Source of the DNA: Fibrobacter succinogenes subsp. succinogenes S85 | GTDB taxonomy: Bacteria; Fibrobacterota; Fibrobacteria; Fibrobacterales; Fibrobacteraceae | Direction: 5' to 3' | Assembly: GCF_000146505.1 (NCBI RefSeq) | Contig: NC_017448.1 | Span: forward strand, 3,030,001 to 3,062,000 | Length of the DNA: 32,000 nucleotides | Part shown: piece after piece, positions 8,394 to 24,140 of the stretch | Numbering within the stretch: position 1 is the first letter of the stretch | How the letters are laid out: each line of letters opens with the position of its first letter | The notes under the pieces: generated by a model | Databases searched by the model: none | What the model saw: the letters and a program-made list of their open reading frames with translations, nothing else | What the model was told of the DNA's origin: nothing | Position numbers and translations under genes: made by a program

Positions 8394-8639
8394 TATGAGC
8401 CTCTTGATAAGAATGGGTACGAGCGACCATTTCGTCGATTTGGGCGAAATTCAAGAGCCATAACTCCTCCACAATTTAGATTTATTTAGAGTTATAGTCA
8501 ACATCGGTTAATTCTCCTTTCCCCGCGGACACGCAAAAACAGCGAGGCTTTAAAAACTATAAAATGCTCATATGAGCACTAGAAAATATAAATCCGTAAA
8601 TAGCGATTGTCAAGAGCCGCGAAAAAAAATTCCCTATAC

Positions 8640-8670
8640 TCAAATTACGACATTATTTGTCGCAGTAAAA
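8640..8670 (+). repeat. 31-nt element TCAAATTACGACATTATTTGTCGCAGTAAAA, left copy; candidate operator/promoter-proximal element 51 nt upstream of ATG 8722
   Basis: Perfect reverse complement of 17712-17742. Contains an internal dyad CGACA-TTATT-TGTCG. It is followed by GAAGAATAACAA, which resembles GAGATATAACAA after the other copy. Confidence 0.6.
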
Positions 8671-8721
8671 TAGTAATTTTGAAGAATAACAATTTTACGA
8701 GAAAAACATAAAAGAGGCTTT

Positions 8722-9381
8722 ATGAGAGGACGTTACATCTATCAATTGGCGGCGACAATCCTGCCGAACGGCTTAGGGCGCGAAACGGTCGTGCACGACT
8801 TGGGTATTTTCACATCGCTTCGCACCGCCGAAAAAATTATGCGCGAGTATGTCACGGAGGGCAACTTCTATTGCCCCGTCTACAGTTTTTCCATCATGTT
8901 CCTACCGGTGAACGATGATTTGGAATATCAGTCTGAACGCCAAATCAATATCTATTCGCCTGCGGGTGAATTGCAAATTTCGGAATTCAACATGATTTCT
9001 TGCAATGGCGCTTGGAGTAACCGAATGAATATTGACATCAGAGCCATCATTGATATTGGACCGTTTAAAAAGCCGTATTTTGTTCTGTACAATCATTGGC
9101 GTCGTGGGCTTGCGACCAAGTGCGCCCGCATTTCTTTTTTGGAGCCTAAATACGAACTGGGCGCGTCGTACAACAAATCGGTTTGGTTCCTGGATGAAAA
9201 TGAGAAAAAGATGCTCGTCAGGTTTTTGAAAGCGGGGAAACATTCTCCGCATGAAGCTGAACCCTCAAATAATTGGCGACTTGCCATCGGAGCCTTCAAC
9301 AACGAAGTCCGAAACGATGACGATAGTCGCATTTTGCCTTATGACCTCCCGATTCCTGACTACACAAAACTGGAGCCGTGA
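8722..9381 (+). CDS. hypothetical protein (219 aa), first gene of the plus-strand string
   Basis: ORF with RBS AAGAGG 5 nt upstream of the ATG. No motif I recognise. Its stop overlaps the next start (GTGATGA). Confidence 0.6.
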   Translation: MRGRYIYQLAATILPNGLGRETVVHDLGIFTSLRTAEKIMREYVTEGNFYCPVYSFSIMFLPVNDDLEYQSERQINIYSPAGELQISEFNMISCNGAWSNRMNIDIRAIIDIGPFKKPYFVLYNHWRRGLATKCARISFLEPKYELGASYNKSVWFLDENEKKMLVRFLKAGKHSPHEAEPSNNWRLAIGAFNNEVRNDDDSRILPYDLPIPDYTKLEP

Positions 9382-10052
9382 TGACTAGAATTTTATCACG
9401 ACCCCCACGGTGGGACATCCTCGAAAAATTCTATCGTGTTTTTGATAAAGGCCGCAAACGCGGTTGCGTTGAACAGTGGCAAAAAGAAATGCCCAAAAAC
9501 CTTTTGGAACAGGAACTATTCGATACCAAAATACACATCGAATTCTTGACCGACCGTCGAGAAAAACTGAACAAGGAATTTCGCTGGACATTCGCAAACA
9601 TGAAAAAGCTAATCACGATGGACCAGCGCATCCGTGAACTCAACAACGAAATCAGCCGCACCTTCAATGCCACGAAAAAGGACATCGCCGGGCTCGTCGC
9701 GCAAAAACACGAGTGGTATAAAGAATACGAACTCGAAGCTGAAATTTGTCCCGCAAACGATTGGAGCATCGCCGGTGAACACGAATACATCAGCGATTTA
9801 CTTTTCTGGTATGTCAATTGGGATGCCATCAACATTCTTGCAAATACAAACGAAGATCATCACGAACGCCACAAGGCTTACAATGTTCCTGCCTGGAAGC
9901 AGATGATGCTTATAGACAAGTTTGTCGAAGACGGAGTTACTTGGGAACTCGATGCATTGCTTTACGACACTGATGCTAGCCTATACAGTTTCAAGGATGT
10001 CGTCCGATTCCGCCCAGAGCAATTTGAAGTGCGGTATAAGTTGAGCTTTTAA
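9378..10052 (+). CDS. hypothetical protein (224 aa), coiled-coil-rich middle
   Basis: ATGA overlap with the upstream ORF implies translational coupling. The central segment is heptad-like and charged (REKLNKEFRW...RIRELNNEISRTFNATKKDIAGLVAQKHEWYKEYELE). No recognisable catalytic motif. Confidence 0.6.
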   Translation: MMTRILSRPPRWDILEKFYRVFDKGRKRGCVEQWQKEMPKNLLEQELFDTKIHIEFLTDRREKLNKEFRWTFANMKKLITMDQRIRELNNEISRTFNATKKDIAGLVAQKHEWYKEYELEAEICPANDWSIAGEHEYISDLLFWYVNWDAINILANTNEDHHERHKAYNVPAWKQMMLIDKFVEDGVTWELDALLYDTDASLYSFKDVVRFRPEQFEVRYKLSF

Positions 10053-10076
10053 CATTAAAAAGGAGGCTGCTTCGTT

Positions 10077-11132
10077 ATGAAAAAGGCGAGAAGATTGCTT
10101 GATGAATTCTTGGAGAATAACAAGAATTTATTTAAACAGCATGATTTGGAAATTGATGCTGATGAAATACACGATGGTCAGCCTCAAAATGCTTATGCAT
10201 TTGTTGATGTCTTTGAAAAGTGCGATGAAAATAAAAATGGGTGGAATGTACATCCTTTCCCAGGACCGATTTGTTTAAGGATTGGATGTTGTGCGGCTGC
10301 AAATAATGGCTGTGGTTGCTTTTGCCTTTCGTTCTTTATCCCGATGGCGCTTGTTGGGCGGATTCCCGAGAAAATGGTTGATTTGATAATCCCGCACAAT
10401 CCAGATAAATGGACTGAGAAAAAATGGAATGGGACAGATTCTATTTTGATTAAACCTGAGCATTTTCGGCAATTGACTCTTGAAACGATTGGAGTTCGTT
10501 TTGATGGATTGAACTATGATGAAAGCCAAGAAATTGAATCAGATGATGTTCAAAAAATGATTGTTGAGAAAACTGCGCAATTGGAAAATGGAACATCGTG
10601 GTTTTATTCCTATTTCTTTGACAAGAATGATGCAGAGAGTGTTTTCGAAGAGCTTTTTGATGACATTATGCCGATATTAGAAAGTAAAAATTCAGATTGG
10701 TATGAATGCGTTGCTGAAATCCAGGCTCGTCGAGGTCAAGGACTTTTTCGGCGTCAGATGATGAAATATTGGGAAAATAAATGTGCGTTTACGGGATGCG
10801 ATAATCCTGAATTGTTGGTAGCTTGTCACGCAAAGCCTTGTGCTGCGTGTGAGAATGTCGAGCAACGAATGAGTCCATATAACGGATTTTTGTTAAGGAC
10901 TGATATTGCTTATTTGTTTAATAAAGGGCTCATTACTTTTCTTGATTGCGGTCTTATAGTTATTTCTAAAAAGCTAAGCGACGAGGACCAGAAAGCTTTT
11001 GGACTTTATGGCGATATGTCTATTCGGAAACTTGATGAAAAAAATCGTGAGTTTTTGCATTACCACCAAAAATATGTTTGGCAAGATCGCGATAGGGGCG
11101 AGCTGATTTTGAAGATGAATGGGTATCTGTGA
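10077..11132 (+). CDS. HNH endonuclease (HNH_2-type C-terminal domain) with unknown Cys-rich N-terminal domain
   Basis: RBS AAAGGAGG lies upstream. The C-terminus has RRGQGLFRRQMMKYWENKCAFTGC..LLVACHAKP...NGFLLRTDIAYLFNKGLITF, the pattern of stand-alone HNH nucleases of the PF13391 type. The N-terminal ~220 aa are unassigned (CLRIGCCAAANNGCGCFC). Confidence 0.75.
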   Translation: MKKARRLLDEFLENNKNLFKQHDLEIDADEIHDGQPQNAYAFVDVFEKCDENKNGWNVHPFPGPICLRIGCCAAANNGCGCFCLSFFIPMALVGRIPEKMVDLIIPHNPDKWTEKKWNGTDSILIKPEHFRQLTLETIGVRFDGLNYDESQEIESDDVQKMIVEKTAQLENGTSWFYSYFFDKNDAESVFEELFDDIMPILESKNSDWYECVAEIQARRGQGLFRRQMMKYWENKCAFTGCDNPELLVACHAKPCAACENVEQRMSPYNGFLLRTDIAYLFNKGLITFLDCGLIVISKKLSDEDQKAFGLYGDMSIRKLDEKNREFLHYHQKYVWQDRDRGELILKMNGYL

Positions 11133-11218
11133 TTCTATGTTGGAATAAGAATTACTGAATTTTGAAGGAAAATGAGTATAGATTTAAAGGAGGTGTATAA
11201 TCTAAAGAAGGGGAAAAT

Positions 11219-12595
11219 ATGTTTTATAGCAATAAATTACATAACAAGTCTAATATACAAAAATTGACTTTAGATGAACTTGTTAATCGATTGTCTTGTA
11301 AATCGGATGTCTTTGTCGTATCCTGTTTTTATGGTTTGGACACTATCCAAAATTTTTTTGATAAAATGTATGATTGTGGAAGACAAGGTCGCTCAACAAC
11401 CGTAATTGTTAGTTCGCAGGGTAGTTCCACAGATCGATTAATTTCAATTTTAAAAGATTTAACACGCGTTAAATTACATCAAACGCAGAAATTATATGTT
11501 TATGAAAATTCTTCTTTACTCCACACAAAATTATACCTATCAATGGATTCTAATGTTTCAAAAAACACATGTTGTTTAGTTGGTAGCCTGAATCTAAGTG
11601 ATAATGCTTTTTCTTCAAATGAGGAAATTTTAGTTGATATTGCAGAAACCAAAGACAAAAAAGCAGCAAGTGATTACATAGATTCCATTCTTTATGAAAA
11701 TGACAAAAGTTTGATAGATGTAAAAGAGTTGCAGAACGAAATGAAAGGCATAAAGGATATAGATGCTTTTTTAAAAGCTAAATATGCGAAGAAATGTGAG
11801 GCTATTTTCAATGGCACATTAAAAGATTTTATTGGTAATGGTTATATATTTTTTAAAGCGCAACGAAACTTTTCGCTGACATATCCCCAAAAATCATTAT
11901 GGGATAATTGGCTTTCAAATATTGACCCGCAAAGCAGGAAAAATCTTATTCCTAATACGAAGAATCCTCGATTAAATGTTTATGATTTACTAGGAATCAA
12001 TGAAGAAATTGATGAAGCTGATACTATCTATATAAAGCAAAATTCGGTTGAAACCAATTTGGGCTATTGGGTGCCCACAGGGAAAAGACATGATTTTATT
12101 CAAGAAACTATAAATAAGATTACGGATCAACGAAAAGAGAGGTATGATAGTATTAATAATATTCTAATTCAAAATAGAGAAAATCTTTCAAATGATACTT
12201 CAAAAAGACTAAAGGATTCTTTTGATAGATTAAATATGTTGTTGACAGAAGATAAAAAGCTCAAAGAAAATGATTTTGACGAGTTAAAAGAAGAATTCTG
12301 TCGTTTTATCCGTGAAAAATCAATGTGGTTCGAAAAAGGTGAAAATAAGGAATTGTATAAGCAAAACGGAATATATTTTAACCCTATGCCTAATTTTTGG
12401 GATGATATTCCTGCTGTAAAAGAGTTTAGAGAAAGCTTTTTTGATGATATAAAATTAAGACATTCAAAAAACGGGAAAAAGATTGTTGATGTTTTGTTTG
12501 AATATTTTGAAATGGAAAAAGGTGAGGTGAATTTAAATAAAAAATTGGGCGAATGGAAGAAAATAGATGAGGAATCCTTTAAACCTAAAGGTTAA
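11219..12595 (+). CDS. phospholipase-D-superfamily nuclease-like protein (single HKD, NgoFVII/BfiI/Nuc-like N-domain) with long K/E/N-rich helical C-terminal region
   Basis: LLHTKLYLSMD...CCLVGSLNLSDNAF gives HxK...D...GSxN, a single HKD motif at about residue 100. The remaining ~300 aa are low-complexity helical. The gene is very AT-rich. Confidence 0.6.
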   Translation: MFYSNKLHNKSNIQKLTLDELVNRLSCKSDVFVVSCFYGLDTIQNFFDKMYDCGRQGRSTTVIVSSQGSSTDRLISILKDLTRVKLHQTQKLYVYENSSLLHTKLYLSMDSNVSKNTCCLVGSLNLSDNAFSSNEEILVDIAETKDKKAASDYIDSILYENDKSLIDVKELQNEMKGIKDIDAFLKAKYAKKCEAIFNGTLKDFIGNGYIFFKAQRNFSLTYPQKSLWDNWLSNIDPQSRKNLIPNTKNPRLNVYDLLGINEEIDEADTIYIKQNSVETNLGYWVPTGKRHDFIQETINKITDQRKERYDSINNILIQNRENLSNDTSKRLKDSFDRLNMLLTEDKKLKENDFDELKEEFCRFIREKSMWFEKGENKELYKQNGIYFNPMPNFWDDIPAVKEFRESFFDDIKLRHSKNGKKIVDVLFEYFEMEKGEVNLNKKLGEWKKIDEESFKPKG

Positions 12596-12603
12596 ATTTT
12601 GCC

Positions 12604-13182
12604 GTGAATAAGAAAAATCAATTTGAATTCCGACCGCAAATAGCGGGGTACGATTGTGCCCCGACAGCTTTTATTAACGCTTTAATCTATTTATTTAAGC
12701 GTGAAGAAATTCCTATAGATGTTGTGCAAGGAATTTATAAAATTACTTTGAATGGGGGCTTATACCATGGATCTTCGGAAAAGGATATCGCAAAACTTTC
12801 AAAGTGGCTTAAGGATTATCGCAGAAAAGACTGGAGTTTTGCAGTTGATATAGATCGTCAAGTTGGGAGAATAGCGAACTTTGACAAAATTGATTTAGAA
12901 GATGAAAACGTATGTTGTATTTTACATGTGAAAATAGCTGGTGGGTACTGGCATTATATTACAGCCTTTTACGAAAAGGGCGACTATATTTATTGTTATG
13001 ATCCTTATTTTGAAGAAGAAAAAGAAACTCGTAATTGGCGTTCAAAGAAAATGAGAAATGGCTGTAATTTGAAAGTTAAAAGAGAATATCTATTTGCAGA
13101 AAAAGATAGCGGCGTTTATCGAACTGGGTTATCTAAGAATCGCGAGTTCATTTTAATAAAAAGGATTAAACCCGCGAAATAA
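12604..13182 (+). CDS. papain-fold cysteine peptidase-like protein (C39-like)
   Basis: GTG start 8 nt after the PLD gene stop. GYDCAPTAFINALIYLF is a candidate nucleophile Cys at a helix N-terminus. GGYWHYITAF is a candidate His and CYDPYF a candidate Asp/Asn. Order and spacing fit Peptidase_C39-like folds. Confidence 0.45.
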   Translation: MNKKNQFEFRPQIAGYDCAPTAFINALIYLFKREEIPIDVVQGIYKITLNGGLYHGSSEKDIAKLSKWLKDYRRKDWSFAVDIDRQVGRIANFDKIDLEDENVCCILHVKIAGGYWHYITAFYEKGDYIYCYDPYFEEEKETRNWRSKKMRNGCNLKVKREYLFAEKDSGVYRTGLSKNREFILIKRIKPAK

Positions 13183-13202
13183 ATTCTCCGCCATTCTAAT
13201 CT

Positions 13203-13811
13203 ATGCAAGAACAGACCTCCAAATTTATCAAATCCAAATCCGAAACCTGCTGTGATTTCTGGCAATCGCTTGTTAAAAAGATTTATGCCCCAAATGCTGA
13301 TGTGATTTTCCTGCATAGAAGGGATGTTCTTGCTGCTTTTAAACGCTTGCAAAAAGCGAAGCCAAATTACGGGTTTGAAATTTCTTATAAGCAAGAATCA
13401 AAGGGGTATCGGAATTGCGATAAGTCGCAAGTTGTTTGCTTGCGCAAGTCTTTGGGTAGTGCCGCTTCAATTGAATTCCTGGTAGATTGTGATGCTAAAT
13501 ATTTGAGCATTCGTTTTTCACATATTGACGCAGGGAAATTTAATGTTTCGTATGAACGCTGCTGGTGTAATCTTGAAGCGACTCTTGAAAACCTTGTGAA
13601 GTTCGTTGATGAATTCACGAATTATAACGAGCAATCGTCAAGAATTATAATGGAAATCGAAAAAGATTATACCATTCAAATGTCTTTTGATATTCAAAAC
13701 TATCTTGAGCAAATCCCGGCGTTGCAAAATGTTCTGAAGCAAACGGAAAACTTCTTAAAAGAAATTCCGTTCCCAATATCTATTAAGGCTCTTGACAAGA
13801 GTCGTTTTTGA
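13203..13811 (+). CDS. hypothetical protein (202 aa)
   Basis: ORF 20 nt after the peptidase gene on the same strand. No recognisable motif. Confidence 0.5.
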   Translation: MQEQTSKFIKSKSETCCDFWQSLVKKIYAPNADVIFLHRRDVLAAFKRLQKAKPNYGFEISYKQESKGYRNCDKSQVVCLRKSLGSAASIEFLVDCDAKYLSIRFSHIDAGKFNVSYERCWCNLEATLENLVKFVDEFTNYNEQSSRIIMEIEKDYTIQMSFDIQNYLEQIPALQNVLKQTENFLKEIPFPISIKALDKSRF

Positions 13812-13875
13812 ATTTATATTGTTGGTGAACAAATGTGTAATCCTGTCTTTTTTGCTTGTAGATGGGAAGGAGTAA

Positions 13876-14904
13876 ATGATGAAAAATGATGTCCCGGCAG
13901 TTGCCAAGTCTGAATTTTCCCTGATAGACGAAAATATGCTTAAATCGCGAATCTACACGATTCGTGGTCTCAAAGTCATGCTTGATGCTGACTTGGCGGA
14001 GATTTATGGGTATAGTACGAAGGCTTTTAATCAACAGATTAAGAATAATATCGAAAAATTCGATGAAGATTTTCGCTTTCAGCTGAATTTTGGGGAAATT
14101 GAAGAACTTTCAAGGTGCAAAATTTGCACCATGAACATGGAAACCGAAAATAAGGAACCTTCAAGGTCAAAATTTTTGACCTTGAACAAGGGCTCTCGCG
14201 GTTCAAATGTCAAGTATGCTCCTTACGCTTTTACCGAGCAAGGCATTTATATGCTTATGACTGTTCTCAAGGGCGAACGGGCGACGGCACAAAGCAAGGC
14301 TCTTATCCGCCTTTTCAAGCAGATGAAAGACTATATCATTGCTGAAAATCGGAATTTGTTGAGTAATGAAGGCCTAGTTCAAATAGCCATGCAAACGGAA
14401 TGGAATACCAAGGATATTGCCGTCATTCAGTCCGACTTGCAGAAGGTCATGGAAAATTTTGTTGATCCTTCTACCTACAAGCATTTCTTGATTTTGAATG
14501 GAAAAAAGTTGGAAGCGGATGTTGCTTATACGCAAATTTATGGCATGGCAAAGAAATCCATCGCCATTATTGACGATTATGTTGGCGTGAAAACGCTCGA
14601 TCTTTTGCGAGGAATTGCCAAGGGCGTTTCTGTGACAATTTATAGCGATGAACAAGGATTTGAATCGCTGGCAGATCAAATTAAGAATGATTTCTCGGCG
14701 GCTCGCCCTGATGTAAAGCTCTTCACGGATCGGACAAGGGGTAAAATCCATGACCGCTATATTTTTCTGGATTACGGCTTAAAAGGTGAAAAGCTTTTTC
14801 ACTGTGGTGCTTCATCTAAAGATGCTGGTAACAAAATTACTACCATCATGCAGATTGAGAATACTGAAATTTACCACATATTGATGGATAAATTAAAAAG
14901 ATAA
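13876..14904 (+). CDS. ORF6N (KilA-N-like) DNA-binding domain protein with C-terminal PLD-like HDR domain
   Basis: N-terminus has IYTIRGLKVMLDADLAEIYGYSTKAFNQQIKNNIEKFDEDFRFQL and APYAFTEQGIYMLMTVLKGERA (ORF6N family). C-terminus has KIHDRYIFLDYG..LFHCGASSKDAGNK, matching the HDRF-x-IID...GASLKDLGKK tail seen in this protein family. Confidence 0.75.
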   Translation: MMKNDVPAVAKSEFSLIDENMLKSRIYTIRGLKVMLDADLAEIYGYSTKAFNQQIKNNIEKFDEDFRFQLNFGEIEELSRCKICTMNMETENKEPSRSKFLTLNKGSRGSNVKYAPYAFTEQGIYMLMTVLKGERATAQSKALIRLFKQMKDYIIAENRNLLSNEGLVQIAMQTEWNTKDIAVIQSDLQKVMENFVDPSTYKHFLILNGKKLEADVAYTQIYGMAKKSIAIIDDYVGVKTLDLLRGIAKGVSVTIYSDEQGFESLADQIKNDFSAARPDVKLFTDRTRGKIHDRYIFLDYGLKGEKLFHCGASSKDAGNKITTIMQIENTEIYHILMDKLKR

Positions 14905-14906
14905 CA

Positions 14907-15314
14907 TTACCCTCTTATCAAAACAAATGGTTTACCCATTTCCTTTATACGCTTGAGGTTTTCTGCTGTGCCTTTGCTTTTTCCATCCCAAATCATAAGA
15001 GCTTGGTCACAATCTTTTGCCATTTGAACGTCTTTCACATAGTGAAAGGCGCGGCCGGTAAGGCCTTTGGCCGCTTCGGCGCATGAGTGGATTTTTGCGG
15101 ATGATGTAAAATTGTTTCTCGGGTTGACTCCGCTACAATAAACGGTTATATTGCTGAAACTCTTGGATTCAAGGTGCTTTTGTACGACGGCATCAACCCC
15201 GTAGCAATCACCGATAAGAATTTCATCGTTGTTTTCGATGAATTGGTCGATGAATATTTTTGCCAATTCAGGCAACTTTGAAATGGATTTTGATCCGGAT
15301 ATAAATATTTTCAT
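14907..15314 (-). CDS. small SLOG-superfamily Rossmann-like protein (DUF2493/YspA/DprA-like pattern)
   Basis: 135 aa. KIFISGSKSI, ILIGDCYGVDAVVQKHL, ITVYCSG and ALMIWDGKSKGTAENLKRIKEMGKPFVLI follow the GxR / GxxxGxD / xGSxGT layout of DUF2493- and DprA-type SLOG domains. RBS AAGAGG is present, 35 nt downstream of the AAA gene stop. Confidence 0.5.
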   Translation of the reverse strand: MKIFISGSKSISKLPELAKIFIDQFIENNDEILIGDCYGVDAVVQKHLESKSFSNITVYCSGVNPRNNFTSSAKIHSCAEAAKGLTGRAFHYVKDVQMAKDCDQALMIWDGKSKGTAENLKRIKEMGKPFVLIRG

Positions 15315-15349
15315 AGCGCCTCTTTATAGAAATTTTTTTCTCATATCAG

Positions 15350-17674
15350 TTATAACCCCATTCTGCGTCCTTCGCGAGTGTCCTTGCATTCGATTTCGTG
15401 GCGCAGTGCTTGCAGAATGTTTTCGGCGGAGATTTCGCTTTCGTCATAATAGCGGAATGATCCATAGACTGCGTTGAAATCGCCTGGTGCGAGTGATTTT
15501 AGCTCGCGAGCGGCGGCGGGGCATTCGACTTTCGGGAAAAACGCTTGCCATACTTTTTCGATTCCCTCTGGCTGCAAGTAGTTGAATTTTATCTTCAATG
15601 CGAATCGCCTGCGTGAAGCTGAGTCTAAATTATTGTTGAAGTTTGTTGCCGCAATGAAGATTCCCTTGAAGTTTTCCATTTGCGTTAATAGCTCGTTTAC
15701 TTGCGTTACTTCCCACCTGTGTTCGGCTCCGCCACGTTCCTGTAGAAAACTGTCCGCTTCATCTAAGAAAAGGATGGCTTTCTTTTCTTCGGCTTCATGG
15801 AACATTGCTCGAATGTTTTGCTCGGTTCCGCCAACGAAACAATCTAAAATTTCACTAGCTCGTTTTACAATGAGTTTACGGTCGAGAGTCCTTGCAATGT
15901 GCTTTGCGAGTTCTGTTTTGCCAGTACCGGGAGCTCCGTAGAATAGAGTGTTCAAGGATTCGGGACAGTCGTAATCATTGAAGTCTTTCCATTTGTCGTT
16001 GAATGAATTGATGACTTTCATGACTTTACTCATGTCGGTATCGATGTTCAGAGCATCTAAAATGTAATTGGGTGCATGGGTGTCTCTATCTCGATGAACA
16101 TATTCTCGCGAGAGTGATAGTAAATTGGATTGAGCTTCTGCTATAATGCGTACTGCTTTTTCGGGAGGAGTCTTGCTACCTTTCTCTTGCAGATGTTTTG
16201 CGCCTGCAATGGCCTGCGTGATACCGCCTGCGGTAATAGAAAGCTCGGATGCTAGTTGTTGAACGAATTTGTGTGACAACATGTTTTTTGCATCTTGCTC
16301 GCTAATGACAGATTCCCAGATTTCCATTCGTTTTTCGGAATCAAGCCTTTCAAATTCTATGGAATAATCGAATCTGCGACGTGTACTATTTTCGATATAT
16401 CTGATATTGTTTGAAATCCAAATGACGGGTACTTTGATTTGCTCCAAGAAAAAGTTAAGCGCTCCTTTTTCACAAAAATTCAGGATGATGTCGGCTTCAT
16501 CTACCAAGAGAATTGCACGCTTGTTTTGGTATTTGGTTGCTGCATACAAGATGCTTCCCATGCGTTCTTGGATGGAAGTGCTTTCTTTTGATTCTCTGTT
16601 TACGCCATCAATGCTTGTGTTGGTAAGGACTAACGGTCGCTTAAGTTCTTTGGCTATCGCTTTGGCGAGTTCCGTTTTGCCGGTTCCTTCGACTCCATAT
16701 AAGAAAATATTGATACCTTGGCCGATATCTACATGCTTGAGCATGTCGTATGCCATTTCGATTTTTGGGTTTTTGTTGCACAGCTTTTTATAGGGGACTG
16801 AATTGCCTTCGTAGACTTTGAAATAGAGAGAATCTAAGTCGCTGCCTGATGTCCCGTCTAGAAAGAGCGCTATTCGTTCGGATGTGTCGAGGTCGTTGTG
16901 GAGAATCCCCATCCGCTTGAGTGTTGATTTGTTCAAAATTGCGTTTTCTATTTGAAGTTCAGGATATAGCGTAGTAAATGTGTTTGCGTAATTTGATTCA
17001 TAGTGTCTATTGGATTCGACTATATTACGGAGGGCGCTGCATGTTTCTTTGTTGCGGAAAATCCATGCAAATATGAGAATTTCCATTTCTGTTGGATTGA
17101 GGTTGAACGATTTTTGTATGATGTCAAGACGTTTTTGATAGGGGTCGTCAAAAGAACTCGTTGTTTTGAGAATTTTTAACATTTCCTTTGAAATCCCATC
17201 GAAGAAAATCTTTTGGGCCGGAGCGTTGAAAATATCTTCGCCGTCAAGGTTTTGACCTGTGACATTTCGGATTGCGTCGATAGAGCTGTTGTTTTTGAGA
17301 ACTTCTCTAATTTTTGTTATTGTTTTCTGACGATCTTGGTAAAGTTCTGATTTGTCGGATTCTTCGACGTCGAATAGCTTGTTGTCAATTCTGATTTTTC
17401 TCTTATGGGAAGACTGCTTTGGGCTTTTTGGATGTTTATCTTCATCGTTGTTTTTTTGCTTAAAATGTTTAGCGAGTCTCTCTAAAATGCGTGAGGCGTT
17501 TTCTTTCGGAAGAATGGCGATGCTGTCTGATGCGTCTGGATATTTTTTTGTGCATCGAAGCATGCGAATCCAGTATTCGTAGCTCTTGAGCGTGATGAAA
17601 TTTAGGCCGATTAGTCTGTTTTCGGTTCTTTTTTGTAACGCCTTGCAAACTTTCTTGAAGTAATCTTTTTTCAT
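15350..17674 (-). CDS. tandem classical AAA+ ATPase (two AAA modules) with ~320-aa unknown N-terminal region
   Basis: D1 has GVEGTGKT (Walker A), AILLVDEAD (Walker B), WISNN and STRRRF. D2 has GAPGTGKT, AILFLDEADSF, FIAATNFNNNLDSASRRRF (sensor-1 and SRH arginines). The D2 context ASEILDCFVGGTEQNIRAMF is typical of the classical AAA clade. Confidence 0.85.
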   Translation of the reverse strand: MKKDYFKKVCKALQKRTENRLIGLNFITLKSYEYWIRMLRCTKKYPDASDSIAILPKENASRILERLAKHFKQKNNDEDKHPKSPKQSSHKRKIRIDNKLFDVEESDKSELYQDRQKTITKIREVLKNNSSIDAIRNVTGQNLDGEDIFNAPAQKIFFDGISKEMLKILKTTSSFDDPYQKRLDIIQKSFNLNPTEMEILIFAWIFRNKETCSALRNIVESNRHYESNYANTFTTLYPELQIENAILNKSTLKRMGILHNDLDTSERIALFLDGTSGSDLDSLYFKVYEGNSVPYKKLCNKNPKIEMAYDMLKHVDIGQGINIFLYGVEGTGKTELAKAIAKELKRPLVLTNTSIDGVNRESKESTSIQERMGSILYAATKYQNKRAILLVDEADIILNFCEKGALNFFLEQIKVPVIWISNNIRYIENSTRRRFDYSIEFERLDSEKRMEIWESVISEQDAKNMLSHKFVQQLASELSITAGGITQAIAGAKHLQEKGSKTPPEKAVRIIAEAQSNLLSLSREYVHRDRDTHAPNYILDALNIDTDMSKVMKVINSFNDKWKDFNDYDCPESLNTLFYGAPGTGKTELAKHIARTLDRKLIVKRASEILDCFVGGTEQNIRAMFHEAEEKKAILFLDEADSFLQERGGAEHRWEVTQVNELLTQMENFKGIFIAATNFNNNLDSASRRRFALKIKFNYLQPEGIEKVWQAFFPKVECPAAARELKSLAPGDFNAVYGSFRYYDESEISAENILQALRHEIECKDTREGRRMGL

Positions 17675-17711
17675 GTTTCACTCTCATTTTGTTATATCTC
17701 TAAAAATAGAT

Positions 17712-17742
17712 TTTTACTGCGACAAATAATGTCGTAATTTGA
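17712..17742 (-). repeat. 31-nt element, right copy (minus strand reads TCAAATTACGACATTATTTGTCGCAGTAAAA); 37 nt upstream of ATG 17674
   Basis: Perfect inverted copy of 8640-8670, in the same orientation relative to its downstream gene. Confidence 0.6.
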
Positions 17743-17747
17743 AGAAA

Positions 17748-17783
17748 GTGAAAAAAGGCAGTCCGCACTTGCGAGCTGCCTTT
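17748..17783 (-). terminator. Rho-independent terminator of the GNAT gene
   Basis: Minus strand has AAAGGCAG-14 nt loop-CTGCCTTT followed by TTTTT, starting 5 nt after the GNAT stop. It abuts the right 31-nt element and marks the island edge. Confidence 0.6.
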
Positions 17784-17787
17784 GCTA

Positions 17788-18411
17788 TTACAATTGTCCG
17801 GGGAGTACTAGCTTTTCCTTAGGCGGGAAGTTGGCTTCGTACTTCTCGAATTCTTCGGGCATTCGCTCGGTTACGAAGTAGCCCTCGGGGTCTTTGTATG
17901 AGCCCATCACTCCGTCCAAGAATCCCTCGTCGAGTTCCTTGCACAAGAAGTATGGCGCGTCGCTGTTCGGGTCGTCGGCGTAGCGGATGCCCTTGACGTA
18001 AGCGGGGACAAATCCGCTCTTGCCGTAGAATCCGATGTTCCCGACGATGAGCAGGCAACCTGCGCTCATCTTGCGCGCGAGTTCCATGGAATAGTCGAGG
18101 AGCGCCTTGCCGTATCCCTGTCGCTTGTAGTTCGGATGGATGCTGATGGGCCCGAAGGTCATCATGCGGATTTTGCGTCCGTCGTCGGCATCGATTTTCG
18201 ACCACGCGTACATCACGTGTCCGATAATTTGTCCGTCAACTTCCATAACGAGCGAGAGTTCTGGGATAAAGCTTGGGTCGTTCCTGTAATGGTGGAGGAC
18301 AAAATGCTCCACGCAGCCGGGACGGTAAACGTTCCAGAATGCTTCTCGGGTGAGATTTTCGACGATTTTAAAGTCGCGCGGTTGTTCCGTGCGGATATTG
18401 TATTTTTTCAT
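17788..18411 (-). CDS. GNAT-family N-acetyltransferase
   Basis: 207 aa. GPISIHPNYKRQGYGKALLDYSMELARK is the acetyl-CoA binding Q/RxxGxG/A motif. Composition returns to core-like GC. Confidence 0.8.
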   Translation of the reverse strand: MKKYNIRTEQPRDFKIVENLTREAFWNVYRPGCVEHFVLHHYRNDPSFIPELSLVMEVDGQIIGHVMYAWSKIDADDGRKIRMMTFGPISIHPNYKRQGYGKALLDYSMELARKMSAGCLLIVGNIGFYGKSGFVPAYVKGIRYADDPNSDAPYFLCKELDEGFLDGVMGSYKDPEGYFVTERMPEEFEKYEANFPPKEKLVLPGQL

Positions 18412-18705
18412 TGTTTATCTCCAAAATTTTTGTGTGAATAGGCACAATCACCTTGGAAGACCGCCTTGAAAACATTCGTCTTCCAAGGCACTAAACAATG
18501 AACCAATATTTACTAGATAACATCCAGCCTCTGATAAAAGTGATGCCTTAAATATACATAGTTTTGCGGAGTTTGGGGCGAAAATGCGCTTTTTCCTGAC
18601 GAATCGCAAATTTTAAGTGTTGTTGAGCTGTGTTTATGAAACTTTTACGAGGAAATTTTTCGGAAAAATCTAAATTTCAATGTTAGTATATGAGGATTTT
18701 TGAAT

Positions 18706-19773
18706 ATGAAAAATATTTCCGCTAAGTATCTTGTGAGCGCCCTTTTTGTCGGGCTTTGCATGTTTGCCGGTTGTGGCGACGATTCGTCGAACTCTTTCCC
18801 GGCTGCTCCGAATACGGGGGCCGTTTCTTCGTCTAGTGTAGATCAGCCGCAAAGCCAAGCTGGCGATACCCAGTCCTCTTCTAGTGAAAATATTTCGAAT
18901 CCCGCTTCGAGTTCCTCTGCTACAGACTCTGGCGTTCCGGCAAGTTCGTCCGATGTGGGTTTGTCATCGAGTTCAGCGGGTGCTACGGTGAATGGTCCCT
19001 TTACTTTTGCGACGACTCCAGGTACTCTCGCCTTGGCTCCGGATGAAGATGGCTTCTACGACATGGGCGATGTCTATAAGGCTGTGCCGAAGACGAGCAA
19101 GATTGCTTTTGTGATTCGCCATTCCAAGCGTCAAAAGAATAATTTGGGAACAGAATCGACGCTGACTCCCATTGGTATTACAATGGCTAAGACCCTCGGT
19201 GAAAAGCTGGTGGGCGATGAATCGTTCTATTATGCTTCGACAAACTTCTTGCGTACCCGCGCAACTTGCGAAAACATTGCCGCAGGCCGTGGCGAAACCG
19301 CCGAGGTCGTGACGTGGGATGGCGTTAATGGCGGTTATTTCTTGACCGTGCCTAGCGATTCGCTGGATGCGCTTGTCTCTAAGAAGGGCGGAAATCCGAA
19401 GTTCATTGCGCAATATTCTTATGGCGTTCCATTCTCTTATGCCGCTACGATTGGCGCAACTCTTTCAACTTATTTCTACGATTTGTATCCTCGCGGCAAT
19501 CAGTTCGTGAACGAAGTTATTGTAGCGAACATGCCGAATTGGAAGCGCGTGAGTGTGCTTGTGAGCCATGACATGTTGGTTGAACCGCTGATTGTGTTTG
19601 TCTCGAATCGGACCATCAATTTGAAAGCTTATGAATCTCCGTTCCACTGGGTCAACTATTTGTCGGGCATTGCCGTGATTGTTGATGAAGCTGGCGCAGT
19701 GACGGCACTCCCGGTTCGCGGTGATGCGGTTGGCTGGATGATTCCGAGCCAAGAAGTGGACGAAGGTGTTTAA
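18706..19773 (+). CDS. histidine-phosphatase-superfamily lipoprotein
   Basis: ATG 18706 follows RBS TGAGGA; the track start at 18700 is a TTG. Signal peptide plus lipobox (LCMFAGCGDD), then a Ser-rich linker. IAFVIRHSKRQ (RH catalytic motif) and VLVSHDMLV (second His) are present. Confidence 0.6.
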   Translation: MKNISAKYLVSALFVGLCMFAGCGDDSSNSFPAAPNTGAVSSSSVDQPQSQAGDTQSSSSENISNPASSSSATDSGVPASSSDVGLSSSSAGATVNGPFTFATTPGTLALAPDEDGFYDMGDVYKAVPKTSKIAFVIRHSKRQKNNLGTESTLTPIGITMAKTLGEKLVGDESFYYASTNFLRTRATCENIAAGRGETAEVVTWDGVNGGYFLTVPSDSLDALVSKKGGNPKFIAQYSYGVPFSYAATIGATLSTYFYDLYPRGNQFVNEVIVANMPNWKRVSVLVSHDMLVEPLIVFVSNRTINLKAYESPFHWVNYLSGIAVIVDEAGAVTALPVRGDAVGWMIPSQEVDEGV

Positions 19774-20519
19774 TGAAAGTCGCTCTTCTTGGTTCAACAG
19801 GACTTATCGGGAAGAGCGTCGCTCAGTTGCTTTCCCGTTTAGATGACGTGGAATCTGTTTTTTGCCCGGTGCGTTCGGTCCCAGACTTGAATGCGCTGGG
19901 CATTTTTAATGGCGTATTGAAGTTCAATTTTGAGGCGGTGGATTTTAACGCTCTTTTGAGCGCAAGGCCCGAAGAGCAAAGGGTGTCTAGCGTTTGCGAG
20001 AACTTTACCTGCTGCGATGCGGTGATTTGTTGCCTAGGGACGACGCTCAAGCAGGCGGGGGGTAAGGCTGCTCAAGAAAAGGTCGATTTGCGTTTGCCGC
20101 TCACGCTTGCTGCCCTTGCGAAGCGTCAGGGCGTCAAGCATTTTTTGTGCGTGAGTGCCATGGGTGCAAATTCTCATTCGCCGTTCTTCTATAACCGCCT
20201 GAAGGGGCAACTCGAAGAGGGCCTCACGATGATGGGTTTTGAATCGCTCACGCTCGTGCGTCCGTCGCTCCTCCTCGGGAAGCACAAGGACAAGCGCTTT
20301 GGCGAAGAGCTGATGCAAAAGCTTTTCGGGTCGCACCCGGAATGGATTCCTGCGCATTTCCGCCCGGTGCCTGCAGAGACGGTAGCCGCGCATCTCGTGG
20401 CGAACATGCTCAAGCCTCCCGTAGACCACGTTTGCGCAACCGACGGTGTAAAAGGCAAGCGCATCGTCTATAACCGACAATTTTTTAAATTTGGCAAAAA
20501 CATTTCGGAGGTCTTATGA
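19773..20519 (+). CDS. NAD(P)H-binding atypical SDR (YraR/HTATIP2-like)
   Basis: MKVALLGSTGLIGKS (GxxGxxG), CCLGTTLKQAGG and RPSLLLGKHKDKRFGE match this family. TAATG overlap with the upstream gene. Confidence 0.6.
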   Translation: MKVALLGSTGLIGKSVAQLLSRLDDVESVFCPVRSVPDLNALGIFNGVLKFNFEAVDFNALLSARPEEQRVSSVCENFTCCDAVICCLGTTLKQAGGKAAQEKVDLRLPLTLAALAKRQGVKHFLCVSAMGANSHSPFFYNRLKGQLEEGLTMMGFESLTLVRPSLLLGKHKDKRFGEELMQKLFGSHPEWIPAHFRPVPAETVAAHLVANMLKPPVDHVCATDGVKGKRIVYNRQFFKFGKNISEVL

Positions 20520-22057
20520 CGATTGTCGTCTTTATCCTTTATTTGCTGATGATGCTTGGCATCGGAGCGTATTTCTCTCGCAAGGCGAACAGCCTGAACG
20601 CCTATTACCTCGGTAACCGTGGCATGAACAAGTGGGTGGTCGCCATGTCCGCCCAGGCGTCTGACATGAGCGGCTGGATGCTGATGGGCCTTCGGGGCGC
20701 CGTGTTCGTGAGCGGTTTTTCCGAAGCTTGGATCGGTATCGGCCTTGTGATCGGTACGTACTTCAACTGGAAAATTGTCGGTCGCAGGCTCCGCAAGTAC
20801 AGCCATTTCTGCGGCGACTCGATTACACTCCCGGACTTTTTCTCGAACCGTTTCCGCGACAATAAGGGCATCATCCGCGTGATTGCCTCGATTTTCATTC
20901 TCGCGTTCTTTTTGTTCTATACGGTGTCGGGCTTTGTCGCTAGTGCAAAACTTTTCGGTACGATTTTTGGTTTGGATTACACCACGGGCCTCATTCTCGG
21001 TGCCGTCGTGGTGGTGAGCTACACGTTCATGGGTGGCTTTTTTGCCGTTTGCTGGACTGACTTTATCCAGGCTTCGATGATGCTTATCGCCGTCCTCGTG
21101 ATTCCGCTGATGATCATGAGCGGTTCGGGCGGTTTTGCCTCGACGATGGATGCGGTGAACGCCCAGAATCCGTACTTGATGAGCCTTTTCACGAACGCAA
21201 CGACGGGCAAGTCCATTGGCCTTATCGCTTTGATTTCTAGCCTTTCGTGGGGGCTTGGTTACTTTGGCATGCCGCACATCCTTGTGCGCTTCATGTCCAT
21301 CAAGAACGCCGAAGAAATCAAGGATTCTCGCCGTATTGCTATGACTTGGGTGATTATCTGCCTTGCTGCAGTCGTGATGATTGCACTCCTCGGCCGCTAT
21401 TACGTGACTGCTCACGGCATTACCGTTGATGATCCGGAACGCATTTTCATGATTCTCTGCCAGGCACTTTGCCATCCGGCCATTGCCGCCATCCTCATGG
21501 CTGCTATTCTCGCTGCGATTATGAGTACTGCCGACTCCCAGCTTTTGGTGTCCGCATCCGCATTCAGTAACGACCTTTACAAGCACTTGTTCCGCAAGAA
21601 CGCAAGCAACAAGGAAGTGATGTGGGTGAGCCGTGGCGTGGTCGTGGTGATTACGCTTATCGCTGTGATTGTCGCGATGCAGGGCGCTCCGAGTGCCGAC
21701 GGCGTGAAGCACGGCAAGAGCTTCCTTGATGTGGTGATGAGCCTCGTGAGCTTTGCTTGGGGCGGTTTCGGTGCAACGTTTGGCCCGATTATGTTGCTTG
21801 CTCTCTTCTGGAAACGTACGACACTCCCGGCTGCTGTTGCGGGTATGCTCGTGGGTGGCCTTACGACGTTTATCTGGAAGTTCTACCTTTCCGGATTCTC
21901 CGCCGAAATCTTCCAGATTTATGAACTCGTGCCGGGCTTTATCCTCTCCTTCGTTACAATCGTCGTCGTGAGCCTTTTGACCAAGGAACCCTCTGCTGAA
22001 ATCCAACTGGAATTTGACCGCGTGGAAAGCACTCGCCTGAGCGATATGAAACTGTAA
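20516..22057 (+). CDS. putP: sodium:proline symporter (SSS family)
   Basis: 513 aa and polytopic. The N-terminus YFSRKANSLNAYYLGNRGMNKWVVAMSAQASDMSGWMLMGL is characteristic of PutP. ATGA overlap with the upstream gene. Confidence 0.85.
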   Translation: MTIVVFILYLLMMLGIGAYFSRKANSLNAYYLGNRGMNKWVVAMSAQASDMSGWMLMGLRGAVFVSGFSEAWIGIGLVIGTYFNWKIVGRRLRKYSHFCGDSITLPDFFSNRFRDNKGIIRVIASIFILAFFLFYTVSGFVASAKLFGTIFGLDYTTGLILGAVVVVSYTFMGGFFAVCWTDFIQASMMLIAVLVIPLMIMSGSGGFASTMDAVNAQNPYLMSLFTNATTGKSIGLIALISSLSWGLGYFGMPHILVRFMSIKNAEEIKDSRRIAMTWVIICLAAVVMIALLGRYYVTAHGITVDDPERIFMILCQALCHPAIAAILMAAILAAIMSTADSQLLVSASAFSNDLYKHLFRKNASNKEVMWVSRGVVVVITLIAVIVAMQGAPSADGVKHGKSFLDVVMSLVSFAWGGFGATFGPIMLLALFWKRTTLPAAVAGMLVGGLTTFIWKFYLSGFSAEIFQIYELVPGFILSFVTIVVVSLLTKEPSAEIQLEFDRVESTRLSDMKL

Positions 22058-22081
22058 TTAACAATCTAATTAGAATGTTTA

Positions 22082-22110
22082 GCCCGGTTCAAAAGGACCG
22101 GGTTTTTCTT
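22082..22110 (+). terminator. Rho-independent terminator after putP
   Basis: CCCGGT-TCAAAAGG-ACCGGG followed by TTTTTCTTT. Confidence 0.7.
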
Positions 22111-22206
22111 TATTTGAAAATTATTTAGAATCGCTTTTCTGCAATTTGTCTGTTTTGTATATTCCTTGATGAAAATGTTAATTCGTTAGAAAAAAGGAGA
22201 TTTTAT

Positions 22207-22953
22207 ATGTTGAAAAAGGCATTTCTTGCCGCGACACTTTGTGCAACCGCAAGCTTTGCAACTTGGGATAAGTTCCCCGTCCTTGAAGACCACAAGGGCG
22301 AAATCGTAGTCGGTACTGAATTTGTCAAACAGGGCGAGCCCATGAAGCTCGTGCCTTATATCGGCTCCCGTTATACGGTCATGCCGAATTTGGAATTGGG
22401 CGTGATCCTTCCGTATTATGTGAACTTGAACATTAACAACGAAAACGGTCTTGCGAATCCTGTGTTTATGGCTCGCTACCAGTTTATGCCGATGTTGAAC
22501 GCCTTCTTGGACGTTCAAGTCCCTATAAGCAACGACCCCTACAATAACAGTGAATGGTCTTTCTGTTTTGGTGCTCAGTATTCCCAGAATCTTGGTGTTG
22601 TAGATTTTGGTGCGGAATTGGGCCTTACTGTGAATACCAGAGGTGATGATAAGATTTCGCCTCCGTTGAGACTGAATTTGGGTGTTGAGACTGATTTTAA
22701 TCTGGGCATTCCGCTGACCCCGTTTATCGGTGCTGATATGTTTGTATGGATCGGCAAGTTTACTTATGAAGGGGAAAACGTTGGCAAGAGCCATACGGGT
22801 GATTTAGCTGTCCGCCCTTATGCCGGTTTGAAGTATGCAATCACCCCAAATGTTAGCGTTCAGGCTTCCGCGCTGACGCTGTTGGGCAAGGAAGAAGTGG
22901 TTGGCCCGGATACTCCGATCAAGGCTGACTTAAAGCTTAAAATGTCGTTCTAA
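22207..22953 (+). CDS. putative outer-membrane beta-barrel protein
   Basis: RBS AAGGAG and a signal peptide (MLKKAFLAATLCATASFA). Alternating hydrophobic beta-strand patterns run throughout, and the C-terminus ends in F (LKLKMSF). Confidence 0.45.
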   Translation: MLKKAFLAATLCATASFATWDKFPVLEDHKGEIVVGTEFVKQGEPMKLVPYIGSRYTVMPNLELGVILPYYVNLNINNENGLANPVFMARYQFMPMLNAFLDVQVPISNDPYNNSEWSFCFGAQYSQNLGVVDFGAELGLTVNTRGDDKISPPLRLNLGVETDFNLGIPLTPFIGADMFVWIGKFTYEGENVGKSHTGDLAVRPYAGLKYAITPNVSVQASALTLLGKEEVVGPDTPIKADLKLKMSF

Positions 22954-23072
22954 AAAAGGTGGGAGGGGGAAGCTTCCCCCTGATTGCAGCCCCTACGGGT
23001 CTTCCATCACCCCTTCTAACGGGCTTCAGACGCCAGCCCGTAACGCCTGGCTCCTAGTTATAAAACAAAAAA

Positions 23073-23520: not shown

Positions 23521-23529
23521 TTGTTTTAG

Positions 23530-23602
<73 letters not shown>

Positions 23603-23614
23603 GAGGACAGCCCA

Positions 23615-23643
23615 TATATAGAAATAAAATTTGTAGTTATAAA
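23615..23643 (-). promoter_or_regulatory. promoter candidate for tRNA-Gly copy 1
   Basis: Minus strand has TTTATA-17 nt-TATATA, ending 12 nt upstream of the tRNA 5' end. The same arrangement recurs upstream of copy 2. Confidence 0.4.
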
Positions 23644-23782
23644 GGGGTGAGTGCCGAAAAAAGTGAAATTTTTTTGAGAGTTCCGAAAGAATTTGGTCGC
23701 ACCCTCTCCCCCGAGGGGTCTCGGGTCCTCGTTCAGCATCTGACTACAAAACAAAAAAGGCGCTTTGCAGCGACTTTTTTTT

Positions 23783-23935
23783 AGAGCGAGAATGTCAAAG
23801 TCCAGTCCCCGCTTCGCGGCTGGACTTTGCCCCTTCGGGCTTGCACTCACTGCGTTCGCGTCAAGCGCAAAATTTGTCTCTTCGCACTTCGTGCATCTCG
23901 TTGTTTAGTCGGCCCCTCTTCTCGGGTCCTCGTCC
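23783..23935 (-). ncRNA. repeat unit C2 (153 nt), B/C chimera, probably defective
   Basis: The 5' part is B-type (..GGGGCCGACTAAACAACGAG..) and the 3' part is C-type (..GACAAATTTTGCGCTTGACGCG..). The two strands of H1 therefore no longer pair. H3 (CAAAGTCCAG...CTGGACTTTG) is intact. Confidence 0.35.
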
Positions 23936-23955
23936 AGTTCAGTACATAAAACAAA

Positions 23956-23980
23956 AGAGCCTAGCTTGACGCTAGGCTCT
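23956..23980 (-). terminator. Rho-independent terminator after tRNA-Gly copy 2
   Basis: Identical hairpin and T-run to those at 23496-23520. Confidence 0.6.
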
Positions 23981-23989
23981 TTGTTTTAG

Positions 23990-24062
<73 letters not shown>

Positions 24063-24140
24063 GAGGGTAGCCCATATATAGAAATAAAATTTGTAGTTAT
24101 AAAGGGGTGAGTGCCGAAAAAGTGAAATTTTTTTTGTTTA

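Follow-up and report, generated by a model that had tools for sequence, protein, structure and literature searches.

A two-gene unit lies within a variable defence island of Fibrobacter succinogenes subsp. succinogenes S85, in a stretch of 32,000 nt (contig NC_017448.1, positions 3,030,001 to 3,062,000) that is called the window here. Its genes encode a 774-aa ATPase with two AAA modules and a 135-aa protein of the SLOG fold, and both are real coding genes. We read the ATPase as the autonomous core of a regulator-controlled family and the SLOG protein as an accessory of one clade, derived from a hydrolase-SLOG unit, so that S85 would hold a reduced module; we judge the balance for and against this reading to be about even. 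The finding is a variant among the AAA ATPases of defence islands and their SLOG accessories, and adds no new system category. A literature search on AAA+SLOG or WYL+AAA systems yielded no description of this pair, and the initial annotation of the window, which did not know the pairing from described defence systems, is borne out on that point. The unit consists of the following features, in the order of transcription.

15350-17674, minus strand: AAA gene, 774 aa, with ATG at 17674 and TAA at 15350-15352.
15315-15349, minus strand: intercistronic spacer of 35 nt, with AAGAGG at 15319-15324, four bases ahead of the second ATG.
14907-15314, minus strand: small SLOG-fold gene, 135 aa, with ATG at 15314 and TAA at 14907-14909.

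Both reading frames, their starts and stops and all of the motifs quoted in the initial annotation were found in the sequence at the places given there. The two-gene operon that it proposed is probable as well. The genes share the same strand, the gap is 35 nt, no terminator-like site is predicted within it, and the two are probably co-transcribed. The spacer also lacks a copy of the 24-mer operator described below. The two proteins are 100% identical to WP_014546757.1 and WP_014546756.1 of S85, annotated as 'AAA family ATPase' and 'hypothetical protein'. The ratio of nonsynonymous to synonymous substitution rates (dN/dS) is 0.13-0.15 for the AAA and SLOG genes across homologous loci with unsaturated dS. 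This denotes purifying selection and establishes both as real coding genes under constraint; the dN of the two genes is similar across locus pairs. Open reading frames (ORFs) on the plus strand within the AAA gene, such as 15582-15941 and 16407-16793, were set aside as shadow ORFs because the AAA frame is kept at full length in more than 100 homologues. The SLOG-fold protein and its homologues are named 'adenine-specific DNA-methyltransferase' in UniRef and JGI/IMG. Neither the sequence nor the structural model supports this label, which is probably a propagated mis-annotation.

The 774-aa protein is divided into three parts.

16730-17674, minus strand: N-terminal region, residues 1-315, a family-specific all-alpha domain in the AlphaFold2 model.
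16175-16729, minus strand: AAA module D1, residues ~316-500, with Walker A GVEGTGKT, Walker B LLVDEAD, sensor-1 SN and RRRF.
15353-15979, minus strand: AAA module D2, residues ~566-774, with Walker A GAPGTGKT, Walker B LFLDEAD, sensor-1 ATN and SRRRF.

PF00004 (classical AAA) matches the protein in two stretches (E 4e-42, 144 bits versus a gathering threshold of 21.2), and both modules are complete, as had been claimed. GVEGTGKT starts at residue 327, LLVDEAD at 389, GAPGTGKT at 580, LFLDEAD at 635, ATN at 676, and RRRF at 432 and 688. Walker A, Walker B, sensor-1 and the arginines of the second region of homology (SRH) are present in each module and invariant family-wide. Across 24 aligned homologues (55-91% identity, each about 775 aa long), both Walker A lysines, the Walker B Asp-Glu pairs, the sensor-1 positions and the RRRF stretches are invariant. 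D1 gave TRIP13-like and RFC-like profile matches across residues 323-476, and its K333, D392 and E393 do not vary across the family; judged from its sequence, it has no aromatic pore loop. Pfam AAA covers residues 577-698 of D2, the only module with a pore loop, whose pore loop-1 is C-F-V-G at 612-615. In classical AAA proteins an aromatic-hydrophobic-Gly pore loop threads polypeptides. By analogy the 774-aa protein may thread a substrate, and its anatomy would suit a hexameric machine for protein threading or remodelling. The C-terminus (15353-15385, residues 764-774) carries a near-invariant K..R..GR.MG[LF] throughout the family. Such a hydrophobic-Gly-hydrophobic tail may serve to dock the ATPase to a partner, much as AAA tails or loops attach to peptidase rings.

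The initial annotation recognised no motif in the N-terminal region, and our searches agree. Residues 1-318 gave no Pfam match (best E 0.086), and the region matches no PDB sequence; fold searches with it gave nothing significant either in PDB (best E 3.3) or in the viral-fold set BFVD (best E 0.41). Its AlphaFold2 model, built from 13 sequences, contains helices only and has a mean predicted local distance difference test score (pLDDT) of 72. A total of 50 positions in the region are invariant among homologues of 39-75% identity, and the protein from about residue 180 on is common also to distant homologues outside Fibrobacter. This helical domain probably recognises the target or the trigger.

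Two known groups of ATPases are close to D2, which matches IetA profiles at E 7e-46 (PADLOC) and 1e-44 (NCBIfam) and Cdc48/p97 chains in PDB at E ~1e-30. The C-terminal ~270 residues (linker and D2) align to the IetA profiles, and both proteins are classical AAA ATPases in defence contexts. However, the score is 153.1 bits against the NF042959 equivalog cutoff of 510 and concerns residues 532-719 only, and the protein adds an N-domain of ~315 aa and one whole AAA module. No Pfam protease-family or PADLOC IetS match, and hence no IetS-like subtilase, was found among the island genes scanned in the window and the related loci; the neighbour in one AAA clade is instead an alpha/beta serine-hydrolase-like protein. 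With Cdc48, p97 and VAT the protein shares two tandem AAA modules and, in D2, the Walker A and B motifs, sensor-1, the Arg-rich SRH and the aromatic-hydrophobic-Gly pore loop. It differs from Cdc48 in its TIGR01243 score (96.7 bits versus a cutoff of 802.65), in an all-helical N-domain without a fold match in PDB in place of the double-psi barrel, in a D1 without pore loop, and in an end that reads GR.MGL rather than HbYX. The earlier description as a Cdc48/ClpB-style motor thus holds for D2, but not for D1, which lacks the aromatic pore loop, nor for the N-domain, which is not Cdc48-like. ClpB/Hsp104 was rejected, with only a weak AAA_2 match of 29 bits against a threshold of 27 and no ClpB-specific family among the 25 best Pfam families. 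The resemblance to DolB is weak (E 8e-13).

No Pfam (even at E<=10), NCBIfam or PADLOC model matched the 135-aa protein, and neither a single-sequence query nor a profile query of PDB sequences produced a usable match. The sole profile match is PHROG phrog_289, 'GTP-binding domain' (E 1.8e-9), the name of which is uninformative. Because the Pfam, NCBIfam and PADLOC models all fail on this protein, its SLOG character could be shown by structure prediction only. The AlphaFold model, made with 26 homologues, has a pLDDT of 92 and a predicted template modelling score (pTM) of 0.87. The best PDB matches in Foldseek are ShosA, DprA, YpsA, MoCo-carrier and LOG (template modelling score, TM, 0.6-0.72; probability 1.0), all of which we take to be members of the SLOG superfamily. 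Ranks 1-11 are occupied by ShosA, DprA and YpsA, all with probability 1.0 and TM 0.64-0.72, including ShosA 8zva at E 5e-5 and 4ljl at E 1.8e-4, both with TM ~0.7. The superfamily placement of these matches agrees with PMC9503650. The model is a three-layer Rossmannoid in which the G7-S8 loop that follows strand 1 and the S113-x-G115 loop ahead of the last helix are conserved, and the motifs ISGSK, GDCYGVD and DGKSKGT start at residues 5, 35 and 110. Near-invariant residues are G7, S8, G35, D36, G39, D41, Q45, R66, K94, D95, W109, S113, G115 and N119; from this pattern we infer a ligand-binding or catalytic crest.

An exhaustive profile search places the small protein in a family of 1717 representative clusters at E<=1e-3 and 812 at E<=1e-10. 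Eighty of the best 150 representatives have stand-alone size (<=170 aa), and 21 are longer than 300 aa, which indicates fusions. A Pfam scan of 148 family representatives returned six weak matches to PF10686 (YAcAr, formerly DUF2493; best E 5.9e-5), six weak matches to Nuc_deoxyrib_tr and three to DprA (PF02481; best E 0.0017), with Tpt1/KptA, cREC, RNase H and YpsA as fusion partners. The small protein resembles YAcAr/DUF2493 as a small stand-alone Rossmannoid with a Gly-Ser loop after strand 1, GD..G.D after strand 2 and DG.S.GT, yet PF10686 does not match it at E<=10. The SLOG/DUF2493-like assignment of the initial annotation therefore stands at the level of fold and superfamily, through Foldseek on the AlphaFold model, and fails as PF10686 membership by model. 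The protein belongs to a separate family of the SLOG superfamily, near YAcAr/DUF2493 and not modelled in Pfam.

The Rossmann domain of DprA and ShosA is the best structural match, and these proteins too occur in defence contexts. Identity is however 12-18%, the SAM and C-terminal domains are missing from the small protein, and its fusion partners point to small-molecule chemistry. Membership of DprA (PF02481) was rejected for lack of a Pfam match of the window protein. ShosTA was rejected as well: the SLOG neighbours are the AAA gene and an ORF6N gene, and no phosphoribosyltransferase (PRTase) is among them. ShosA itself is a DprA-like antitoxin that binds single-stranded DNA (PMC11961720). 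The weak partial matches of the small protein in the annotated phage database are to 'DprA/GTP-binding domain' proteins of N4-like Erwinia phage. ThsA of type I Thoeris has the SLOG superfamily in common with the small protein, and its SLOG domain senses isomers of cyclic ADP-ribose, a precedent for an NAD-derived signal in phage defence (PMC11204291). Thoeris was nevertheless rejected, since the small protein consists of SLOG only, Pfam and PADLOC scans of the window genes found no TIR or SIR2, and PADLOC finds no Thoeris component; the small protein has no ThsB/TIR generator and neither a SIR2 nor a Macro effector fused to it or next to it. SLOG domains have been argued to sense ADP-ribose-derived molecules or to cleave their N-glycosidic bonds (PMC9503650).

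The AAA family was surveyed with one genome per species, from which ORFs were called, clustered and searched with a SLOG hidden Markov model. A total of 53 genome loci encode AAA relatives, nearly all of them in Fibrobacter. Kiritimatiellales, Spirochaetota, Bacteriovorax and others have distant relatives (29-34% identity) whose alignment begins at about residue 146-187. A phage origin was rejected: the phage-database matches are weak and partial, that of the AAA protein being to one faecal phage with 32% identity over residues 319-773, and the viral contigs of IMG/VR contain no AAA relative. A SLOG gene lies downstream on the same strand in 10 of the 48 full-length AAA genes, and 38 are without it. 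All SLOG-bearing loci fall into one clade of the neighbour-joining tree, with an AAA identity to the window of at least 68%. The distance from AAA to SLOG within this clade ranges from 2 to 1989 nt, and the genes in the interval, of clusters C7 (~200 aa), C64 (~360 aa) and C45 (~125 aa), vary from locus to locus. Only the window and locus L018, two of the ten, have the two genes directly adjacent.

By these counts AAA and SLOG do not form a conserved, dedicated pair; the recurrent partner of SLOG is a hydrolase-like protein. The clade nevertheless retains the arrangement: SLOG is downstream of AAA in ten of ten species-level loci and also in the metagenome loci L007-L010 and L068-L070. The module occurs in at least three chromosomal contexts (the GNAT side, the FeoB/WYL side and others), and is retained in L012 despite the absence of ORF6N there. 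The gene order in L007 is AAA-C7-SLOG, with gaps of 16 nt and 9 nt. No AAA-SLOG fusion exists among the 150 best SLOG-family representatives, and loci of other architecture (L001, L005) encode SLOG relatives at a distance of a few kb from AAA genes.

Other features of the AAA family were observed in the survey. Tandem divergent paralogues of 763 and 779 aa are present at L032 4686-9368 and L033 6253-10934, and several genomes hold two or more AAA paralogues at separate loci (e.g. L012/L027, L039/L053). The AAA gene, with or without WYL, is repeatedly found immediately upstream of recC/recB-like genes (L005, L023, L026, L028, L029, L040), which could reflect a site of frequent integration, or a role of the AAA gene connected with DNA-end processing. 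Loci L045-L053, whose AAA proteins are 36-38% identical to that of the window, have DUF4172-Fic upstream on the same strand in place of WYL, and a DUF1232 membrane protein downstream of AAA on the opposite strand.

The protein that usually stands between AAA and SLOG in the SLOG-bearing clade is C7, an alpha/beta serine-hydrolase-like protein of ~200 aa. It possesses a nucleophile elbow of the form G-x-S-x-G, and the Ser, Asp and His positions are mostly conserved: among 13 sequences, 12 have the S, 12 the D and 10 the H. Its Pfam match is weak and sub-threshold (Abhydrolase_1, E 0.01), and PADLOC has no match to the ~200-aa family. Examples of the hydrolase family are located as follows.

L007, 7395-7991.
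L012, 12631-13788.
L070, 1937-3732.
L065, 6001-7512.

Fusions of the hydrolase to SLOG were found in L012, P0248 and P0404-P0408, and the reverse order, SLOG-hydrolase, in P0411 and in part in L019. In L070 an AAA gene (94% identical to the window protein) is followed by a fused hydrolase-SLOG gene, a separate hydrolase gene and a window-like SLOG gene, an order which implies that hydrolase and SLOG were duplicated as one unit. On these gene arrangements, it is the alpha/beta-hydrolase-like protein and not the AAA ATPase that recurs with SLOG, is fused to it and is duplicated along with it. S85 has no hydrolase gene; the hydrolase was lost twice, in S85 and independently in L018, with AAA and SLOG kept. 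In another lineage, proteins of ~500 aa join the hydrolase domain to an ADP-ribosylglycohydrolase (PF03747), and the spore-germination genes next to them suggest Firmicutes. A metallophosphatase-SLOG fusion is encoded near another AAA gene (L005). An NAD- or ADP-ribose-derived ligand is proposed because of the hydrolase-PF03747, metallophosphatase, Tpt1/KptA and cREC fusions, together with PMC9503650. The hydrolase-SLOG unit probably handles such a nucleotide, and the fusions of the hydrolase to SLOG, in both orders, and to ADP-ribosylglycohydrolase suggest that its family may consist of uncharacterised esterases or hydrolases with ADP-ribose derivatives as substrates.

Transcription of the unit appears to be controlled from a palindromic element, for which the window offers these features.

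17714-17737, minus strand: operator candidate TTACGACATTATTTGTCGCAGTAA, 43 nt upstream of the AAA start codon.
8645-8668, plus strand: second copy of TTACGACATTATTTGTCGCAGTAA, 53 nt upstream of the 219-aa gene (8722-9381).
6066-7085, minus strand: WYL/WCX-domain regulator, 339 aa, with Pfam WCX and WYL and PADLOC WYL (E 4e-21).

The element is a 24-mer with a core of CGACA-N5-TGTCG and an embedded TTTG, followed by TAnnTTT. Its two exact copies in the window, where none is expected, lie one at each end of the island and both point into it; they belong to a 56-nt inverted repeat (8630-8685 / 17697-17752). The 19-nt core was found, with three or fewer mismatches, in 63 copies in 1.17 Mb of related loci, versus about 0.25 expected by our own calculation. 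In loci where an AAA gene follows, it is usually placed 43-50 nt upstream of that gene's start, and in several loci ~33 nt upstream of the WYL gene. Thirty exact copies in metagenome contigs precede AAA (8), 219/224-aa genes (11), C64 (5), C45 (2) and unidentified ORFs (3), and downstream of the remaining one the contig ends before any ORF is reached. Locations of the element outside the window include L007 3836-3854 and 4991-5009 and loci L071-L099. The 24-mer marks a small Fibrobacter island regulon that consists of AAA, WYL, the 219/224-aa gene pair, C64 and C45. The spacing from TTTG to TAnnTTT is ~14 nt, in the invariant part of the element. This TTTG/TAnnTTT arrangement resembles the -33/-7 promoter of Bacteroidota, which is not established for Fibrobacter. 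We infer a promoter overlapped by an operator.

WYL/WCX is the commonest AAA neighbour, immediately adjacent and on the same strand in 14 of the 48 full-length AAA genes, and the WYL protein of the window is in the same cluster (C1) as those. The locus has a WYL regulator, and a palindrome is common to the upstream regions of WYL and AAA genes, as in a WYL-regulated defence locus; these are also the points of likeness to BrxR/CapW. In contrast to those systems, the WYL gene of the window is located at the far end of the island, and operator binding is a prediction. WYL regulators of defence systems include BrxR (PMC9122589), and by analogy with it the WYL protein is a candidate binder of the 24-mer.

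The island corresponds to an AT-rich stretch from about 8 to 17.7 kb of the window, and the defence-island setting first proposed is supported by two PDC-S05 genes, HNH and PLD nucleases and the WYL gene in the window. The other island features are as follows.

7095-8102: RhuM-type PDC-S05 gene (PADLOC E 8e-142).
13876-14904: ORF6N-type PDC-S05 gene (PADLOC E 2e-100).
11219-12595: PLD-nuclease gene, followed by a 192-aa gene at 12604-13182.

PDC-S05 is a PADLOC candidate family. The ORF6N gene converges tail-to-tail with the SLOG gene, with stop codons 2 nt apart. The island also encodes an HNH nuclease, and its PLD nuclease is similar to ZacB/DrmC. The 192-aa protein is C39_2-like and shares 39% identity with a Peptidase_C39_2-like protein of L069, and L001 encodes PLDc_2 and Peptidase_C39 together in one protein of 602 aa. 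The PLD and 192-aa genes may represent a PLD-peptidase defence gene in split or fused form. AbiEii, AIPR, Fic, CdiA_C-like and NOV_C genes stand beside homologous AAA genes. No integrase, transposase, plasmid or phage gene was found in the island, and Pfam and PADLOC scans of the island genes detected no TIR, cyclase or SIR2 signal enzyme.

Fibrobacter sp. UWB12 (L064, FRAZ01000008.1) shares both flanks of window positions 4074-22981 at 92-94% DNA identity. Between the same flanks, S85 carries the AAA, SLOG, ORF6N, 202-aa, 192-aa, PLD and HNH genes, and UWB12 a NOV_C gene together with a hydrolase-SLOG gene that is truncated. UWB12 has no AAA gene, and the 5' region found ahead of AAA in S85 stands there ahead of the hydrolase-SLOG gene. 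The locus is a defence-island hotspot with exchangeable cargo, and cassettes have been exchanged in it. The UWB12 locus may be a remnant because its SLOG is truncated. Three tandem tRNA-Gly(GCC) genes with equal scores, ~385-460 nt apart, lie on the minus strand at 23529-24447 of the window.

The reading that we prefer takes the AAA family, centred on Fibrobacter, as a self-sufficient core built from the helical N-domain, one ring without a pore loop and one IetA/Cdc48-like ring with FVG. Its expression would probably be set by a WYL-type regulator acting on the palindromic operator that overlaps the promoter. The SLOG accessory would have been acquired once, in one AAA clade, and would normally work there with the ~200-aa hydrolase-like protein. 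A defence role of the ATPase, and any crosstalk with SLOG, are putative. The two genes could also be independent neighbours, where SLOG with or without the hydrolase forms a self-contained cassette that shares a hotspot and promoter with AAA and has no crosstalk with it; this is possible, if on the improbable side. Such a cassette could be a DNA-binding antitoxin like ShosA/DprA, in keeping with the best structural matches, or two enzymes that make or break down signals derived from ADP-ribose. The fusion and joint duplication of hydrolase and SLOG argue for independence, as do the fluid slot between AAA and SLOG, whose C64 and C45 genes have their own operator copy elsewhere, and the UWB12 5' region, which drives a hydrolase-SLOG gene in an AAA-free locus. 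SLOG relatives in other architectures and the 38 of 48 AAA genes without SLOG add to this. Yet SLOG is kept downstream in all ten clade loci and in the seven metagenome loci, across several contexts, with short gaps and no separate SLOG operator. The sole AAA-less case, UWB12, looks like a remnant; moreover, the SAM and C-terminal domains that DprA/ShosA possess are missing from the small protein, and a ShosT-like PRTase is not encoded nearby.

The sensor-motor pairing raised in the initial annotation can be cast as a model in which SLOG is a dedicated nucleotide-ligand sensor that directly gates the tandem-AAA unfoldase, the two forming a new two-gene defence system. Its elements hold in part, in that the unit is real and the SLOG fold confirmed, but the pair is not conserved and no signal synthase appeared in the Pfam/PADLOC scans of island genes. 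Same-strand placement with a 35-nt gap and probable co-transcription favour it, as do the strongly conserved ligand-crest pattern, the similar dN of both genes, the precedent of the ThsA SLOG domain (PMC11204291), and the retention of SLOG alongside AAA by every member of the clade, in two of them without the hydrolase. Direct adjacency in two of ten loci and the SLOG-less majority of the AAA family nevertheless speak against it. With 1717 representative clusters, the SLOG family extends well beyond the AAA family, and its best 150 representatives are not joined to this AAA; the fusions of SLOG to hydrolases and phosphatases suggest ligand processing over relay to a motor. We consider this proposal unlikely. 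A bolder version, which we find similarly doubtful, would make AAA, hydrolase and SLOG of one Fibrobacter clade an undescribed three-part immune module under the WYL operator. SLOG and hydrolase would read or edit an ADP-ribose-derived signal that switches on the unfolding motor, the N-domain would pick a phage or host target, S85 would be a natural minimal AAA+SLOG form, and the SLOG-less family would be a single-gene AAA defence.

It is very unlikely, finally, that immunity is not involved at all and that the ATPase serves a mobile island as an addiction or stability module, or is a stress-proteostasis ATPase, incidentally present among defence genes. The IetA-like D2 would fit, as IetAS was reportedly first described, by Yamamoto in 2009, as a plasmid-stability toxin-antitoxin system on pTiC58. 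The many genomes with several AAA paralogues, including the tandem ones (L032, L033), and the frequent position beside recC/recB would fit too. On the other side, neither integrase nor transposase nor plasmid genes turned up in the island, a conserved protease or toxin partner is lacking, and IMG/VR has no AAA relative. WYL regulators and such neighbourhoods are moreover typical of defence loci (PMC9122589).

The AAA family is taxonomically narrow and its function putative. The hydrolase-SLOG unit is a candidate new handler of NAD- or ADP-ribose-derived molecules, and the common operator offers a directly testable regulon that spans several uncharacterised island genes. If the AAA protein is a defence effector, it would add a new architecture and a new recognition domain to the small set of IetA and DolB, and would represent a lineage-specific immune gene for Fibrobacter, a major fibre degrader of the rumen.

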